Notes under the pieces: generated by a model | What the model saw: only the letters and a program-made list of their open reading frames with translations | The model's database searches: none | Told to the model about the DNA's origin: nothing | In this document: piece after piece, positions 2,275 to 57,714 of the stretch | How the letters are laid out: each line of letters starts with the position of its first letter | Numbering within the stretch: position 1 is the first letter of the stretch | Translations under genes and position numbers: made by a program | Assembly: GCA_963727895.1 (NCBI GenBank) | Contig: CAVSHT010000009.1 | Span: forward strand, 352,001 to 416,000 | Direction: 5' to 3' | Length of the DNA stretch: 64,000 nt | Origin: an uncultured Methanosarcinaceae archaeon | GTDB taxonomy: Archaea; Halobacteriota; Methanosarcinia; Methanosarcinales; Methanosarcinaceae

Positions 2275-3591
2275 TTATATTTGTTTGAACACCTCTTTTA
2301 CCATTGAAACTCTCTTTTCCAGATCAGGTCCTTCAAGTTTTTCTACAACCAATTCAAGCATCGCTGATATATCTATGTGCTGAGGACATTTTTCAAGGCA
2401 CTGTCCACATTGTGTGCACTGGGATGCATATCTGGTTTCTCCAACGAATAAGGTACCACTCAAATGTTCAGCATAGAGAAACTTTACATTGCCTGTATTG
2501 CTAGACATATAGAGATTGTTGTACAATTCAAAACAGAGTGGAATATTAACCCCTGATGGGCAAGGCATACAGTATCTGCAGCCTGTACAGCCTATTTTCA
2601 TCAGTTCACGATACTTCTGCCCTACTTTCTTTATTAGCTGCAGTTCATCTTCAGTCAAAGAATTCGGGTAAGCTTCACCTTCTATCTTCAGGTTCTCATG
2701 AATATGCTCTCCCTCATTCATACCGGAGAGGACAACCGTAACTTCCGAATGGTTCCATACCCATCGAAGAGCCCATTCTGCAGGTGACCTCTTTATCAGG
2801 GCTTCGTCCCAGATATCTTTCACGACTGGAGGAATGATTTTTGTCAGGTTCCCTCCTCGAAGAGGCTCCATAATTACAACGCCAAGACCTCTGGAAGCAG
2901 AATATTTTAGACCCTTTTTCCCTGCCTGATTCTTTTCGTCCAGGAAGTTGTACTGGATCTGGCAGAATTCCCAGTCATAAGCGTCCACTATCCGCTTGAA
3001 ATCCTCCCCTGCGCCGTGGAAGGAGAAAACTGCATTAATTATGCGGCCGTCAGCTTTGGCTTTGTCAAGGAAATCAATGTAATTGATCTGTAATTGAACA
3101 AAATCAAGTTCCGGATGAGCAATTAGAATTTCATCCAGTAATTCCGGTGTATCATGAAAAGACATACCCATGTTCTTTATTTTTCCTTCTTCCTTTTTCT
3201 TCAAAGCAAAACCGAATGTATCGTATTTACATGCCTGCTCATAAGCACTTACACCAATATTGTGAAGCAAATAATAATCAAAAAATTCGACACCACAATT
3301 TTCCAGTTGTTCGTTGAAGATCCTATTCTGATCGTCAACTGACTTTAACATTCTGGGAGGAAGTTTCGTCGCAAGAGTAAATTCATCTCTCTTCTGTCTT
3401 TTTACCAGAGCTTCTTTGATAGCCTCCTCACCCTTAAACCCATGATATGTATATGCCGTATCAAAGTAAGTAAATCCTTTTTCCAAAAAGGTATTTACCA
3501 ATTTGTTTAATGTTTCTGTATCAAATGACGTCTGCTCATCTTTATCTAAAAGTGGTAATCTCATACAGCCAAAACCTAATCGTTTTGCCAT
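2275..3591 (-). CDS. Aldo/keto reductase with C-terminal 4Fe-4S dicluster (apparently chimeric)
   Basis: LGFGCMRLP, FDTAYTY, LATKLP, MEPLRGG motifs; CTGCRYCMPCP and CTQCGQCLEKCP; internal duplicated segment. Confidence 0.85.
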   Translation of the reverse strand: MAKRLGFGCMRLPLLDKDEQTSFDTETLNKLVNTFLEKGFTYFDTAYTYHGFKGEEAIKEALVKRQKRDEFTLATKLPPRMLKSVDDQNRIFNEQLENCGVEFFDYYLLHNIGVSAYEQACKYDTFGFALKKKEEGKIKNMGMSFHDTPELLDEILIAHPELDFVQLQINYIDFLDKAKADGRIINAVFSFHGAGEDFKRIVDAYDWEFCQIQYNFLDEKNQAGKKGLKYSASRGLGVVIMEPLRGGNLTKIIPPVVKDIWDEALIKRSPAEWALRWVWNHSEVTVVLSGMNEGEHIHENLKIEGEAYPNSLTEDELQLIKKVGQKYRELMKIGCTGCRYCMPCPSGVNIPLCFELYNNLYMSSNTGNVKFLYAEHLSGTLFVGETRYASQCTQCGQCLEKCPQHIDISAMLELVVEKLEGPDLEKRVSMVKEVFKQI

Positions 3592-52199: not shown

Positions 52200-52877
52200 G
52201 TGCCTGACATTGAATACCTTAAAAAACTAGCACTTATAGGAGCAGTAAATAAAACCATCAAGGTCTCATCAAGTGAGTTTCAAAAACATACTGGGGCAAG
52301 CTCCAAAACCGCAGCAAGAAAGTTAAAACAGCTGGAAGAGGAAGGGCTTATCGAACGGAAGATTGTTTCTAGTGGCCAGTTGATAAAAATGACAGAAAAA
52401 GGAATTGAAGTACTTAAGAACGAATACCTCGATTACAACAGGATATTTTCTCCGGAACCTGAAACTCTGGTGCTTGAAGGAAAGGTGCTTACAGGTCTTG
52501 GCGAAGGTCAATATTACGTAAATATACCAGGATACAGAAAGCAATTTGAGGAGAAATTGCATTTCGTACCTTTTCCCGGAACTCTGAATGTGCAACTTTC
52601 TGAAGGCAGTTTGCCTCTTCGAAGTCTTTTGCGTGAAATTCCAGCTACTCGGGTAGAAGGCTTCAATGACGGTGAACGTACATTCGGAGGAGGAAAATGT
52701 TATCCAGTTGTCGTTGGCGGAATAGAGGCCGCTATAGTGACTCCTGAAAGAACACATTACCCATCCGATTTGATTGAGATCATTGCACCTGTAAAGTTAA
52801 GGGATGCTTTGGAACTGAATGATGGAGACAAAGTTGTAATACAGGTAAAAAAACAGGATATGGAGAATCAGAAATGA
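52200..52877 (+). CDS. ribK: wHTH / CTP-dependent riboflavin kinase (RbkR type)
   Basis: N-terminal wHTH; GLGEGQYY, PFPGTLN, PERTHY and EIIAPVKLR motifs. Confidence 0.93.
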   Translation: MPDIEYLKKLALIGAVNKTIKVSSSEFQKHTGASSKTAARKLKQLEEEGLIERKIVSSGQLIKMTEKGIEVLKNEYLDYNRIFSPEPETLVLEGKVLTGLGEGQYYVNIPGYRKQFEEKLHFVPFPGTLNVQLSEGSLPLRSLLREIPATRVEGFNDGERTFGGGKCYPVVVGGIEAAIVTPERTHYPSDLIEIIAPVKLRDALELNDGDKVVIQVKKQDMENQK

Positions 52878-53614
52878 GTGGAAGTACGGTTTACAATTGT
52901 CTTACTTATAGAAACGAAAATATCAATCAGGCACTGGAAGCCATTCGGGCTGGAAAAATGATCCAGATCTATGATTCGGACGCAAGAGAGGGAGAAACTG
53001 ACCTTGTAATCCCTGCAAAAGCGGTCACTTTCAAAGAAGTAAAGTGGATGAGAAAAGATGCAGGAGGCCTTATCTGTGTAGCTGTTGATCCTGTTGCATC
53101 AAAACAGCTCAGGCTACCTTTCATGGCTGAACTTGTTAGAGAAGCCAGCAAAACCAGTGACATGCTTGGGGAAGTTGTGGAAAAAGAAGGTGATCTAAAG
53201 TACGATTCTCATTCTTCTTTTTCTCTCTGGGTAAATCATAGAGAAACCAGAACCGGAATTCCTGACAATGAAAGAGCTCTTACCATCCAGAAAATAGGAG
53301 AAATTACAGAAAAAAAGCTCTCAGGAGATGCAATCCATTTTGGAGACGAATTCCGAACTCCTGGACATGTTGCACTGCTCAGAGCTGCCGAAGGACTTGT
53401 AGATGAGCGCAAAGGTCAGACCGAACTTTCAATTGCCCTTGCCCGTATGGCAGGCATCGCTCCTGCAATGGTAGTCTGCGAAATGCTGGACGATACTAAT
53501 GGGAAAGCTCTCTCAAAAGAAGACTCAAAAGAATACGGTAAAGAACATGGTCTTGTATTTCTAGAAGGACAAGAAATAATAGACGCTTATATGACGTGGG
53601 CAAGCTCAGACTAA
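52874..53614 (+). CDS. ribB: 3,4-dihydroxy-2-butanone-4-phosphate synthase
   Basis: DSDAREGETD, GGLIC, FRTPGHV, RKGQTE and CEML motifs. Confidence 0.95.
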   Translation: MSGSTVYNCLTYRNENINQALEAIRAGKMIQIYDSDAREGETDLVIPAKAVTFKEVKWMRKDAGGLICVAVDPVASKQLRLPFMAELVREASKTSDMLGEVVEKEGDLKYDSHSSFSLWVNHRETRTGIPDNERALTIQKIGEITEKKLSGDAIHFGDEFRTPGHVALLRAAEGLVDERKGQTELSIALARMAGIAPAMVVCEMLDDTNGKALSKEDSKEYGKEHGLVFLEGQEIIDAYMTWASSD

Positions 53615-54033
53615 AAATTTATTTCTTCCATCCTTTTTAGTTTTATTTTTGTTTATTTCTTTGATTTTTTTCATCTTTTTTTAAAACGCAGAATTTTATA
53701 GACAGTGTTGCAAATTTGCTATAAATTTGAAGCCAAGTTTTTATATACTCTGGAAAAAATTGAGCTCTCGACATGGAATTTTTTATTCAATTACTTCATG
53801 AGATTTGTTATTTTGCGGATAAATTATGCACAACTCCACCACTTGTTTTCATAATTTGTTTTTTGTAAACTTTTTTGAATTTAGAGCTCTTGCACTTTGT
53901 TAAATTTGAGCATATTTATATATTCATAAGTATATCGTCCGTAACAAAATAAAAAGAGAAGAAGATTTCAGTAGTGGACTGAAGAACACTAAGCGATAAG
54001 TTTTGGATAAGTTATTGAAATTGGTGGATAAAA

Positions 54034-56609
54034 ATGGCTCGTATATATGTGTCTTCAACTTTTAAGGATCTTAAGGAATGTCGTGAAAAGGTTAGAGTCA
54101 CCTTAAAGCGAATGAGCCATGAAGATATAGCAATGGAATATTATGTTGCAGAGGACAAAAGACCAGTTGACAAATGCTTGGAAGATGTCGCCTCTTGCGA
54201 CCTATACATAGGTATCTTTGCGTGGAGATACGGTTTTGTGCCTAAAGAATATGATAAATCCATTACTGAACTTGAGTATAGAAAAGCAGTAGAAACAGGA
54301 AAAAATTGCTTAATATTTTTGTTACATGAAGACGCTCCCTGGCCACGAAATTTTATTGATAAAGGTGGAGATCAAGAGAAAATTGAGGCTTTAAGGAACG
54401 AATTGTCTGCTGAAAAAGAGGTTAGCTTTTTTAAATCAGCAGAGGAACTTGCCAGCGTTGTAGGTCCAGCTGTTCGTAATTGGGAAATGAACGGAAACCC
54501 AGTTCGAGATTCTTTTCATATAGCACCCATTCAAGTCCAAGCATTGACAGAACCTTTTGTAGAACTCCCTGTAATGCAAGAAATTAAAAGCCATCTCCTC
54601 AATGGTAGCAATTCAAAAGGGATACTTGCTATTACCGCAATTCAAGGACTGGAAGGTATTGGAAAAACAACCCTTGCTAAGATTGTAGCTCATGATAAAG
54701 AGATCCAAAGTTATTTTTCAAATGGAATACTCTGGGTTACTCTTGGTCAGGAACCTGATAAACTCTCTTTGCTAAATGGCTGGATAAAGGAACTTGGAGA
54801 TTCTCAATCTAATCATACAACGATAGAAACAGCATCGAATCATTTGATAACACTGCTTTACGAAAAACGCATTCTTTTAGTCGTAGATTATGCCTGGAAC
54901 TCCAGTGATGTAAAACCTTTTTTAGTAGGTGGGTCCAGCTGTCAGACTATAATAACAACAAGAAAAGCTTACATAGCTGATTATTTAGGTGCAAAATGTT
55001 ATTCTTTGAATGTAATGACAGAAGAGCAATCTTTAGAGTTATTTGCCAAAATTCTGAAAGATTCCTGGGAAGAAAATGAAAAAGAGGACGCCCTTAAAGT
55101 CGCCAAAGATATTGGTTACCTTCCATTAGCTTTAAATCTGGCAGCTAAAAGAGGAAAAAGGAACTATTCCTGGATCAAGATACACGAAGCGCTTGAAGAA
55201 GAAATTGCTCATCTTAGTGTTTTAAGTCCACGAATATTAGGAAAAGGAGAAGAAGGGCTAGAGGCATCTTTAAATTTAAGTTTAAACGCTCTCAGATCTT
55301 ATAATGAAGAAGCTTTTTTAAATTTAAGATGGCTTGGGGTTCTGCCTGATGACATTAAAGTGAATGAAAAAATGGCTTCTACTCTTTGGGGCATAGATAA
55401 AGAAGAAGCTGGAAATATACTGGAAGTGCTATGGGAAGAAGGTCTGCTTACACAAGATTCAGCAATTCATTTGGGGAACGAAAAACTAAAAACGTATCGT
55501 ATACATGACCTTTTTCATGATATTGCTTGTCATTATTGACATGTTCCCCCGTTGTGAAAAATAGCACAGAACTTCCTGGTTTAAGATTAACACTTAATGA
55601 AGCTCATGCTTCTTTATTAAAACGTTATCAATCAAAAATGCAGACCGAGGGTTTATGGCATACATTAGAAGATGATGCCTACATCCACAGTCATCTGACC
55701 TGGCATATGGAGAAAGCAGGAAAGATTGAAGATATCCATAATTTATTAACTGAGGAAAACGAAAAAGGAAAAAATGGGTGGTATGAAGTCCTTGAATCCC
55801 TAAAACTAAATGCAGTTTTTATTGAAGATCTTATGCGAGCTTAGAATTTATCCGAAAAAAATTCAGAGCAACAAATAGAACAGGGCAATAAAACTTATTT
55901 CATTGGACTGGAAATTCGTTATGCTCTCATATACACTTCGATTAACAGTTTGTCAGCTAATATTCCTACAGAACTACTGGTTACACTTCTTGAAACTAAA
56001 AAATGGACTGAAACTAAAGTATTCATATATGCACAAAAGGAACCTGAATTTTATAGAAGAGTAATCAAATTAATCTCGATTCATCAAATAATAAATGATA
56101 AATCTATAAAAAAAGAAGTAATTGACAAAGCCCTTGAAATAGCCTCAAATATTCAAGATGATTATGAAAGAGCAAAGGCACTTTCTGCTATTGTTTCTCA
56201 TTTAGATGGTCAAAGAAAAGAAGAACTGATGGAAAAGTCTCTTGAAATAGCCTCAAATATTCAAGATGATTATGAAAGAGCAAAGGCACTTTCTGCTATT
56301 GTCTCTCATTTGGATGGCCAAAGAAAAGAAGAACTGATGGAAAAAGCCCTTGAAATAGCCTCAATGATTCAATCTGATTATGAAAGAGCAAAGGCACTTT
56401 TTTTTGTATTATCTCTCATGAGAAATTCGCCAATAAATAAACTTTATTTTTGGTGGAAAAAAATAATTCAAATCCTCAGAGAATATACTCGAAGTAACTT
56501 ACTTTTTAGCATCATCACATTAATTCCAGTTATAAATGATTTGGGTAAAGATGAAACGCTCTTTGAAATCTCTCGGGCTATTATAGACGTGTCAAATTGG
56601 TTTCTGTAA
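54034..56609 (+). pseudogene. DUF4062 + NB-ARC (STAND) + APAF-1-like helical domain + TPR-like repeats; about 858 aa when reconstructed
   Basis: IYVSSTFKDL..CDLYIGIFAWRYG..SITELEY; GLEGIGKT, LWVTLG, GYLPLAL and IHDLFHD motifs; 1-nt deletion at about 55536; in-frame TAG at 55842-55844. Confidence 0.88.
56127..56400 (+). repeat. 108-bp (36-aa) near-identical coding repeats, about 2.5 copies
   Basis: cttgaaatagcctcaa recurs at 56133, 56241 and 56349. Confidence 0.9.
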
Positions 56610-56850
56610 AGTAAGTTTCTGATGGGTACTGTGTAGAAAGGAACCTATTTTTCTTTGTCCAGATGATTGTGATAAAAAGTCATCTCGAAAACCTAGCACT
56701 TTACTTTTGGTACACTGCCATTTTATATGAAGATAAATTAGTATATCTAATAGGTTCTTGATAGTTTCAACAGTATTAGGTTTCTTAACCATTTTCTCAT
56801 TCACCGCCTTTTTTTCGGTTTCGCACATTTGATGTCGGGGGGTTAGAATT

Positions 56851-57714
56851 ACGTTACAGAGATTCAAAAAAGTACAACAAGTTCTGATCTATGTACTAAT
56901 TCTAAACCTTGCAGTTTCATTTACCAAAATAATTTACGGAACTATGACTGGCGCGTTAAGTATGACTGCAGATGGTTATCATTCTCTTTTTGATGGAGTT
57001 TCAAATATCATAGGATTGGCTGGAAATTTTATAGGAGAGCGCCCGCCTGATATAGCACATCCTTATGGGCATAGAAAATATGAAACATTAGCCTCTATTC
57101 TTATCGCTTTACTTTTGATATTTGTAGGTGTTGAGATTTTCCGGAATGCGCTCAATCGATTCCTTATCCCTAGCACACCAGAAGTTACAGCTATAAGTTT
57201 TCTTATAATCCTCGTGACAATGGGCATCAACTATATGGTAACACAGTACGAATATAAACAGGGTGAATCTCTCCGAAGCCAGATGCTTGTAGCAGATTCA
57301 ATGCACACAAAAAGCGACATTTATGTATCTCTATCGGTTATAGTAAGTCTAGCTGCCGTAAAGATCGGTTTTCCTTTCGTGGATCCTTTAATAGCTGTAT
57401 TAATTTCATTCTTTATTTTCAGAGCAGGATATCGAATTGTAAAAGAAGGTTCAATAGCCCTTCTGGATATATCCAGAATTGAAGAAAAAGAAATTTGTAA
57501 CTTAGTAATGAAAGTTGAAGGGGTAAAGGGCTGCCATAAAATTCGAACTCGTGGGAGCATGGGAGATATCAAGGTTGATATGCACCTGCTTGTTCAGCCG
57601 GATAAATCTCTTAAGGACGCACACCTTATCTCTCACAAGGTCAGTAAAAAGCTGAAAAGTGAATATCAGGATATTTCTGATGTAGTAATCCATATTGAAC
57701 CTTTCTTACAATAA
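56851..57714 (+). CDS. Cation diffusion facilitator transporter (probable ACG start; first ATG at 56944)
   Basis: ADGYHSLFD, HPYGHRKYE, ADSMHTKSD and VIHIEP motifs; TM1 is encoded upstream of the first ATG. Confidence 0.9.
   Translation, partial: TLQRFKKVQQVLIYVLILNLAVSFTKIIYGTMTGALSMTADGYHSLFDGVSNIIGLAGNFIGERPPDIAHPYGHRKYETLASILIALLLIFVGVEIFRNALNRFLIPSTPEVTAISFLIILVTMGINYMVTQYEYKQGESLRSQMLVADSMHTKSDIYVSLSVIVSLAAVKIGFPFVDPLIAVLISFFIFRAGYRIVKEGSIALLDISRIEEKEICNLVMKVEGVKGCHKIRTRGSMGDIKVDMHLLVQPDKSLKDAHLISHKVSKKLKSEYQDISDVVIHIEPFLQ

Follow-up and report, generated by a model that had tools for sequence, protein, structure and literature searches.

The 64,000-nt window analyzed here, from the genome of an uncultured Methanosarcinaceae archaeon (G000; 3.67 Mb, 19 contigs, 84% complete), contains a 3019-bp insertion, hereafter the cassette, between ribB and a CDF cation-efflux gene. 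It occupies window positions 53701-56719, corresponding to C9:405701-408719 in G000, and consists, from left to right, of a complete miniature inverted-repeat transposable element (MITE), an interrupted gene of STAND/NLR-like architecture with its upstream region, the first nucleotides of an unrelated MITE, a short spacer, and a solo terminal repeat of the type found in the IS256 insertion sequence (IS) family. A transposase-less mobile cassette with inverted ends and an 8-bp duplication had been proposed at this place by an original prediction made from the letters of the window, and these features can be read in the sequence. The segment that it delimited, 53693-56727, is real, but this range includes both copies of the duplication, and the element proper is 53701-56719. 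In the following, G0xx denotes the other genomes compared, L0xx the fetched loci, X1, X6 and X8 metagenome runs, and Cn contigs.

The left end of the cassette, GACAGTGTTGCAAA (53701-53714), and its right end, TTTGGTACACTGCC (56706-56719; reverse complement, GGCAGTGTACCAAA), agree as an inverted pair at 11 of 14 positions. Both of the inner motifs that had been noticed earlier are present as well, at 53824-53837 (reverse complement, GGAGTTGTGCATAA) and at 56625-56638 (GGTACTGTGTAGAA). A repeat search returned 440 inverted pairs within 3.4 kb, with the cassette pair lying outside the 25 longest. An inverted repeat of this quality is not unusual on its own, but paired with the duplication it is far beyond chance. 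When every plus-then-minus pair formed by the motif G[GA][CT]AGTGT of the ends at a spacing of 60-8000 bp was collected from the whole of G000, identical 8-mers abutted 5 of the 54 pairs, the cassette being among the five, while none of the 54 pairs matched at any of the control displacements (8, 16, 24, 32, 50 and 100 nt) and the reversed motif gave 0/32. The five duplication-bounded pairs were two 136-bp MITEs, two 2.26-kb MITEs with a group II intron, and the cassette itself.

The uninterrupted target was then found in relatives. The interval from ribB to CDF was searched in 24 congeners and 16 more distant relatives, many of which have the two genes side by side; the blast pieces obtained for the flanks in G001, G016 and G003 share an overlap of exactly 8 bp. 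Spacers of the seven loci having both flanks (L005-L011; L012 gave no flank match) were aligned with the window from which 53701-56727 had been taken out, and all seven showed an uninterrupted spacer in which the 8-mer occurs once, in the form ...AAAACGCAGA-ATTTTATA-TGAAGATAAGT..., the 8-mer being ATTTTATA in six loci and TTTTTATA in L011. The empty site with a single 8-mer that had been predicted is thus present in these congeners, all of which rejoin exactly at one copy. The duplication is exact, has the 8-bp length typical of the parent family described below, and is accompanied by a precise empty site.

The right junction is also represented outside G000. In 20 sequencing runs with matching words, the share of sampled words never exceeded 0.13. 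Contigs that come from two runs belonging to two studies and are approximately 93-96% alike bridge this junction: X1 record 8 spans 56544-56870 and X6 record 24 spans 56551-56767. Since the junction is bridged by metagenome contigs of two runs, it is not an artefact of one assembly. The same insertion is accordingly present in related environmental lineages, which argues against a recent origin. Exact matching of the junction strings, by which diverged copies are missed, gave 0 hits for the left and right junctions in metagenome contigs and 0 for the right junction in genome contigs.

Inside the two outer ends, which are IS-family terminal repeats in inverted orientation, lies a passenger gene without a transposase gene, as judged from the open reading frame (ORF) list and from Pfam. 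The Pfam scan inside the cassette, which among the internal ORFs of at least 50 aa covered the three long STAND pieces, the others being short (52-53 aa), gave STAND-related or insignificant matches for these three pieces, and no transposase.

The left arm recurs genome-wide. Elsewhere in G000, 15 copies were found by blastn at E <= 1e-3, and an nhmmer profile built of the MITE gave 24 matches in this genome, including the window copy at profile positions 1-133; further matches are distributed throughout the genus. Being short, non-coding, dispersed in many copies and provided with IS-like ends, and with two 136-bp copies in G000 bearing exact 8-bp duplications, the left arm has the properties of a MITE. 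The consensus of this MITE begins with GGCAGTGTCGCAAATTTGCTGTAAATT at the left and terminates with ...TTATGTTACACTGTC at the right. The outer end of the window copy agrees with the consensus left end at 24/27 positions and with one of the two ends of the related IS, end B (see below), at 20/27. At its inner end (53824-53837), the conserved GRCAGTGT terminus is no longer present, and the reverse complement there reads GGAGTTGT.

The right arm is built differently. It had been taken, like the left one, for a MITE-like arm, and this description applies to the left arm, but the right arm has no MITE homologue: a second MITE at this place was rejected, as blastn gave no match of the right arm in G000, and no homologue was found past the 3′-end of the cargo gene in 58 congeners. 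Instead, the right arm is composed of 12 nt of a foreign MITE, a 66-nt spacer and a 17-nt solo end. Homology to G074, G023, G043 and G044 ends at 56636, and in G023 and G043 a full 88-bp MITE stands at the same position behind the same gene 3′-end. This 88-bp MITE family has the terminal repeats GGTACTGTGTAGTCTA and TAGACTACACAGWACC and is represented in G000 at C4:60922, C4:126708, C14:17385 and C14:64847, as well as in L036 and L037. Most of the 66-nt spacer had no match in the 58 congeners, where two weak short matches were obtained (E = 5e-4 and 9e-3). The solo end is identical over its 17 nt to an end at C4:110597 in G000 (17/17), and it matches end A of intact congener IS copies, GGCAGTGTACCGAAAGT, at 16/17 positions, or at 19/27 when the comparison is extended over 27 nt. 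The right arm was also considered as the remnant of a group II intron end and rejected, since beyond the last 17-22 nt the alignment was no better than with shuffled sequences.

The family to which the ends belong was recognized from its autonomous members. In G000, a 1372-bp element (C14:28023-29394) has the family ends around a decayed Transposase_mut (PF00872) gene that contains stops and scores 254 bits, and a second transposase fragment lies at C5:~109248-109986; no intact cognate transposase was found in the 19 contigs, and at a completeness of 84% the assembly could have missed an intact copy. The transposase fragment was matched in 33 of 58 congeners, several of which have multiple intact copies of ~392 aa; such copies lie, for example, in L027, L030 and L032. 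Opposed ends 1247-1372 bp apart were found in 9 of the 11 IS loci scanned, one of the nine being the decayed G000 copy, and exact 8-bp duplications adjoin six of these nine. The eight congener copies measure ~1247-1283 bp and carry GGCAGTGTACCGAAAGTTCTGTAAAAT as the end next to the start of the transposase gene (end A) and GGCAGTGTGCCTAATTTTCTGTAAAAT as the opposite one (end B). The autonomous relatives are accordingly IS256-family elements of ~1268 bp with GGCAGTGT...CTGTAAA ends, 27-nt repeats and ~392-aa proteins that were detected with a PF00872 fragment; they encode a Transposase_mut DDE transposase, and by this sequence relationship IS256 is the parent family of the cassette ends.

An autonomous IS with the same ends, which had been anticipated, thus exists in the genus, in the form of these congener copies. 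The family that had been guessed was IS1, IS6 or IS1595, and this assignment was wrong, because the IS1 ends in G000 (GGTATTG...) differ and the matching ends are those of IS256 elements; GGCAGTGT...CTGTAAA ends were not seen in any element of IS6 or IS1595 type, the matching elements all being of IS256 type. With respect to polarity, the left end of the MITE consensus fits IS end B best (22/27) and its right end fits IS end A best (23/27), and the cassette has a B-type end at the left and an A-type end at the right. By these end comparisons, the cassette has one end of each type, as expected of a transposable unit.

Two other groups of elements in G000 were inspected in this connection. The IS1-family element, approximately 0.75 kb long, combines a zinc-finger part resembling InsA with a part resembling InsB between ends that read GGTATTG..., and with ~136 copies (for example, C3:126718-127867) it has undergone a very large expansion. 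A 17/18 match of the MITE to this ~136-copy repeat falls inside the IS1 transposase gene and was dismissed as a coincidence, and with it IS1 as mobiliser. The two 2.26-kb MITEs, C4:152231-154491 and C5:394159-396426, are both interrupted at the same internal site by a decayed group II intron, in which pieces of a reverse transcriptase/maturase ORF remain, and both adjoin exact 8-bp duplications. Between the two copies, identity amounts to 88.4% in the MITE parts and 95.1% in the introns; the MITE may contain an intron homing site. As proof of cargo carriage these two elements were rejected, independent intron homing being equally likely.

The DNA enclosed by the cassette was traced to other genomes in three parts. 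Positions 53845-54246 are 90% identical to G001:C103:3085-3486, where no MITE lies upstream; 54518-56400 are ~77% identical to genes in G014, G012 and G022; and 56418-56636 share 87-92% identity with a gene remnant in G023, G074, G043 and G044, behind which the 88-bp MITE lies. Because the upstream region and the 3′-end thus occur elsewhere without the cassette, the cassette encloses an ordinary chromosomal segment. This segment comprises the gene together with the region upstream of it and the margin of an adjacent MITE, which fits the capture of a chromosomal segment.

Some of these loci have features of their own. In G001:C103 (L013), around position 3486, the DUF4062 homologue is cut off past the equivalent of window position 54246 by DNA with ...TTTTTGCAACAGAACC..., which looks like an IS6-like end, and a similar GGTTCTGTTGCAAA string adjoins a truncated MITE at C3:~52900 in G000. 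The congener loci L016 (G014:C1:1978000-1993000), L017 and L018 contain NB-ARC genes in tandem that are very long (1169-1753 aa) and comprise repeats of 36 aa by the dozen; the tandem genes differ in their N-terminal domains, and the G022 copy starts with what looks like a trypsin-like protease. Such loci look like a hot spot of STAND diversification.

The cargo gene is preserved as three ORF pieces, the third of which was listed as 55950-56609. In ORF 1, Pfam identified DUF4062 (E = 3.8e-25, 88.3 bits) and NB-ARC (E = 6.4e-25, 88.3 bits; cutoff 23.5), whereas the APAF-1-like winged-helix domain (WHD) reached 19.1 bits and remained under its cutoff of 27. The NTPase part gave matches to AfsR, APAF-1 and plant NLRs in the PDB, and the N-terminus could be aligned to the KpSwz DUF4062 structure (E = 9.6e-6). 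In this alignment, Glu79 of the motif S-I-T-E stands opposite the Glu of S-F-T-E in KpSwz, and the latter is presumably the catalytic Glu that is called E97 in a preprint. An NB-ARC/APAF-1-type P-loop NTPase with helical domains, together with a winged helix below the cutoff, is the domain content of a STAND/NLR protein, and the order of N-terminal effector, NTPase and C-terminal repeats is that of an NLR, with the frame interrupted twice. The cargo had been called a STAND/NB-ARC protein, and Pfam bears this out with the N-terminal effector-type DUF4062 domain and NB-ARC.

PADLOC models, including those of Avs, matched none of the three pieces at E <= 0.001 (0 families each), and NCBIfam gave only NB-ARC-type similarity below the cutoff, to AfsR and TPR proteins. 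According to two preprints, DUF4062 is a TIR-like NADase that serves as the effector of Avs2 and other NLR-like antiphage proteins (bioRxiv 10.64898/2026.09.04.749371, 10.64898/2026.05.01.722283). Because DUF4062 is reported there as such an effector, "NLR-like immune-type gene" is a fair label for the predicted architecture.

As to its integrity, the cargo gene is interrupted by two lesions. Homologue alignments switch frame at ...HDIACHY* / LLTCSP, and an in-frame TAG at 55842-55844 stands opposite the conserved Trp of RAWNLSEK in 3/3 homologues (TGG-to-TAG). Homologues of 1097-1753 aa in G024, G014, G012 and G022 are colinear with the cargo gene, have various N-terminal domains and contain many more repeats, so that the cargo array, with three, is much shorter than theirs; an intact homologue of 1097 aa, a DUF4062-STAND ORF, lies in L015. 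The claim of one immune cargo gene holds for the STAND architecture, while the reading frame is interrupted by frameshift and TAG and is not the intact frame expected of a functional defence gene. Methanosarcina can read some TAG codons as pyrrolysine. On balance of these lesions, the cargo is most likely a pseudogene. Because two homopolymer discrepancies (at 55535 and at 56837-56842) occur within 3.6 kb, the frameshift near 55535 may be an assembly error; the TAG, being a substitution, is more likely to be real. Homopolymer errors could also explain the completeness estimate of 84%.

The second of these discrepancies concerns the right neighbour. As assembled, the start of the CDF gene has 6 G at 56837-56842, which places the upstream ATG out of frame, and its ORF was listed from 56944. 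When this start was compared with 7 relatives, the run was one letter shorter (5 G) in the nearest of them, L005, and it is equally short in a contig of X1. With the TG that follows it, the target 8-mer ATTTTATA looks like a TATA box of the archaeal type, located ~110 nt upstream of the CDF start. Since the insertion duplicates this TATA-like 8-mer, the promoter of CDF may have been retained, now with different sequence upstream of it, and the right 8-mer copy would keep the TATA-like box in place. The coordinates of all features are collected in Table 1.

Table 1. Features of the cassette and its flanks, in window coordinates.
Feature	Position	Strand	Basis and remarks
ribB (DHBP synthase), left flanking gene, outside the element	52874..53614	+	Pfam PF00926, E = 9.5e-58; adjoins CDF in congeners
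Left copy of the 8-bp target-site duplication, ATTTTATA	53693..53700		Read in sequence; relatives have a single copy
Full-length 137-bp MITE	53701..53837	+	blastn and nhmmer copies; outer terminal repeat 53701-53727
Upstream region of the cargo gene, promoter presumed	53838..54033	+	90% identity to G001 over 53845-54246
Cargo ORF 1, 501 aa: DUF4062 (TIR-like NADase domain), NB-ARC NTPase, winged helix	54034..55539	+	Pfam
Cargo piece 2, APAF1_C-type helical domain	55527..55844	+	PF17908, E = 2.4e-8, 34.4 bits (cutoff 22.8)
Frame break, one T missing relative to homologues (TT vs TTT)	55534..55537	+	X1, X6 and X8 contigs at least 90% alike have one more T after 55535
Cargo piece 3: helical region, three 108-nt (36-aa) repeats at 56108-56431, C-terminal cap	55845..56609	+	Direct repeats
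Truncated copy (first 12 nt, GGTACTGTGTAG) of a MITE of the unrelated 88-bp family	56625..56636	+	Four other G000 copies; full copies in G023, G043
66-nt spacer	56637..56702		No blastn match in G000
Right terminal inverted repeat, solo IS256-type end	56703..56719	-	Minus strand reads GGCAGTGTACCAAAAGT
Right copy of the 8-bp target-site duplication, ATTTTATA	56720..56727		Read in sequence; metagenome contigs bridge the junction
CDF cation-efflux gene, right flanking gene, outside the element	56834..57714	+	Pfam PF01545, PF16916

Regarding copy number, blastn found no second copy of the cassette in G000, and the motif scan found no other cargo-sized end pair bounded by a duplication in this genome. 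Other cargos with the same ends, which had been suggested, were found neither in G000 nor, by a strict 14-nt end pattern, in five complete congeners. The original prediction had further stated that such cassettes spread defence genes in Methanosarcina. Because no second copy and no other cargo cassette was found, this statement is unsupported, and the cargo of the single copy looks inactivated.

Taking the above evidence together, we consider it probable that 53701-56719 is a non-autonomous, cargo-carrying derivative of the IS256 family, of the mobile insertion cassette (MIC) or composite-MITE type, that was moved as a unit by a transposase acting in trans. We infer its single-unit movement, the trans-acting transposase and the original route of composite assembly from the arrangement as it stands today, and the most economical course would be as follows. 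A MITE would have been located upstream of the STAND gene, with a solo family end downstream of it, and the inner end of the MITE would have decayed. The IS256-family (Mutator-type DDE) transposase from a ~1268-bp IS would then have acted in trans, bringing the outer left end together with the one downstream, and the 3019-bp unit would have transposed into the AT-rich ATTTTATA of the ribB-CDF spacer, by which the 8-mer was duplicated. The cargo carried along would comprise the STAND gene, its own upstream region and 12 nt of the neighbouring MITE. IS256 elements transpose via excised circles with abutted ends. Because the assembly has no intact cognate transposase, the cassette is probably a fossil.

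Several observations weigh against movement of the cassette in this way. The cassette is single-copy, and because only one copy is known, there is a single event to speak for its movement as a unit. At the right end, agreement with the family is confined to 17 of the ~27 nt of the repeat, and the cognate transposase genes of G000 are all decayed. The intron-bearing MITEs are no evidence of cargo carriage, as homing fits them as well as unit transposition does. Moreover, the strict 14-nt end pattern, which misses degenerate ends, returned only MITE- or IS-sized pairs in the five complete congeners (G006, G012, G014, G004 and G060). The cassette may alternatively have been put together in place and stepwise, with a MITE or IS inserted at ATTTTATA first and the cargo added later by recombination, gene conversion or nested insertions and deletions. 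The patchwork of the interior speaks for such a course: besides a complete MITE, the inner end of which has decayed, it contains 12 nt derived from a different MITE and an orphan spacer of 66 nt. So does the acquisition of nested elements (group II introns) by MITEs in G000. However, the left arm by itself constitutes a complete MITE, inner end included, and because of this the outer right end is an extra end and not half of a split MITE; a recombination donor would need the same MITE-gene-end layout, which implies a pre-formed composite again; and no intermediate was seen among the seven relatives, all of which have clean empty sites. We therefore regard stepwise assembly at the site as unlikely.

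Much the same data bear on the two other explanations. Were the cassette an active one, moved in trans by an element of the IS1, IS6 or IS1595 type and currently spreading working defence genes, its ends starting with GG, its 8-bp duplication and the abundance of IS1 in G000 (~136 copies) would be accounted for, and the cargo would agree in its immune-type architecture, given that two 2026 preprints report a DUF4062 NADase effector of antiphage systems. Against this stand the ends themselves, since those of IS1 begin with GGTATTG... and those of the cassette with GGCAGTGT, its 27-nt ends belonging to IS256 elements, as well as the single copy without any other cassette, the TAG and frameshift in the cargo, and the 0 matches in PADLOC, which together leave an active cassette of this kind very improbable. 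Still less credible, to the point that we attach almost no weight to it, is an origin without transposition, in which the segment arrived by illegitimate or homologous recombination, for example with foreign DNA, and repeat and duplication coincided. While the AT-rich 8-mer and the 440 inverted pairs in 3.4 kb would make such a coincidence easier, the flanks of the end pairs match only at offset 0 (5/54) and in none of the controls, both ends belong to an IS/MITE family that makes 8-bp duplications, the right end is identical to a family end at 17/17 positions, and the empty site is exact to the base.

The IS256-derived cassette was compared with elements of known type. De Palmenaer and colleagues are said to have described in 2004 MIC231, a MIC derived from IS231 in Bacillus cereus. 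Like MICs such as MIC231, the cassette has IS-type terminal inverted repeats around a passenger, no transposase and a duplication of the length typical of the parent, and its mobilisation in trans is presumed; unlike them, it is IS256-derived and archaeal, has a whole MITE at the left and a 17-nt partial repeat at the right, and is known from one copy. The concept of the MIC was taken from the ISsaga paper (PMC3129680). Neither mobilisation in trans nor occurrence at several sites was observed for the cassette (a single copy in G000 and no other found), and for this reason we call it MIC-like and not a proven MIC. In Acinetobacter, class 1 integrons are bordered by MITEs, and MITE-297 borders a mer region of 76 kb (PMC6382973). 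The cassette shares with these composites a layout like that of a composite transposon, in which miniature non-autonomous elements bracket a cargo, but the Acinetobacter composites have two full MITEs and a resistance cargo on plasmids, whereas the cassette has one MITE and a solo repeat around a chromosomal STAND/NLR-like gene.

Its relation to IS256 itself is that its ends match those of the ~1268-bp PF00872 elements, while it differs from the members of this family in having no transposase and 2.4 times the length of the IS, and it is accordingly a derivative. Plant Pack-MULEs, reportedly characterized by Jiang and colleagues in 2004, are non-autonomous Mutator-like elements with captured fragments of host genes. 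The cassette resembles them in that a related transposase superfamily (Mutator-type, by Pfam name) is concerned and that a captured, degenerate host gene lies between the terminal repeats of a non-autonomous element; it differs in being a single instance, the cargo of which looks like one colinear gene with its flanks and not like stitched fragments. As for the cargo, it resembles Avs2 with DUF4062 (NIR) in having an N-terminal DUF4062, a central STAND NTPase and C-terminal repeats, whereas its NB-ARC/APAF-1-like NTPase, the lack of a PADLOC match, the archaeal host, the interrupted frame and the number of only three repeats set it apart from the Avs2 type.

In the literature, no MITE or MIC of this kind was found for Methanosarcina, within a coverage that did not extend to the main archaeal IS review and ISfinder, so that absence is not proven. 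One may speculate, as a long shot, that IS256 MITEs of Methanosarcina are counterparts of Pack-MULEs, in which decay of the inner end would let the transposase reach to the next solo end downstream and move the host DNA lying between, so that fast-evolving STAND/NLR-like loci would be captured repeatedly and archaeal immune receptors duplicated and reshuffled within and between genomes, the cassette being the first example caught.

As a single and probably dead copy, the cassette illustrates a mechanism and not the importance of this mechanism for the spread of defence genes. It nevertheless offers a well-documented case in which an archaeal non-autonomous element of the IS256 type can enclose and, by our interpretation, relocate a 2.9-kb segment with an NLR-like gene. 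The idea of the MIC or MITE composite, so far mainly bacterial, would thereby be extended to Methanosarcina and to immune-type STAND genes, and the cassette provides a concrete substrate for the question of how much terminal repeat an IS256-family transposase needs.

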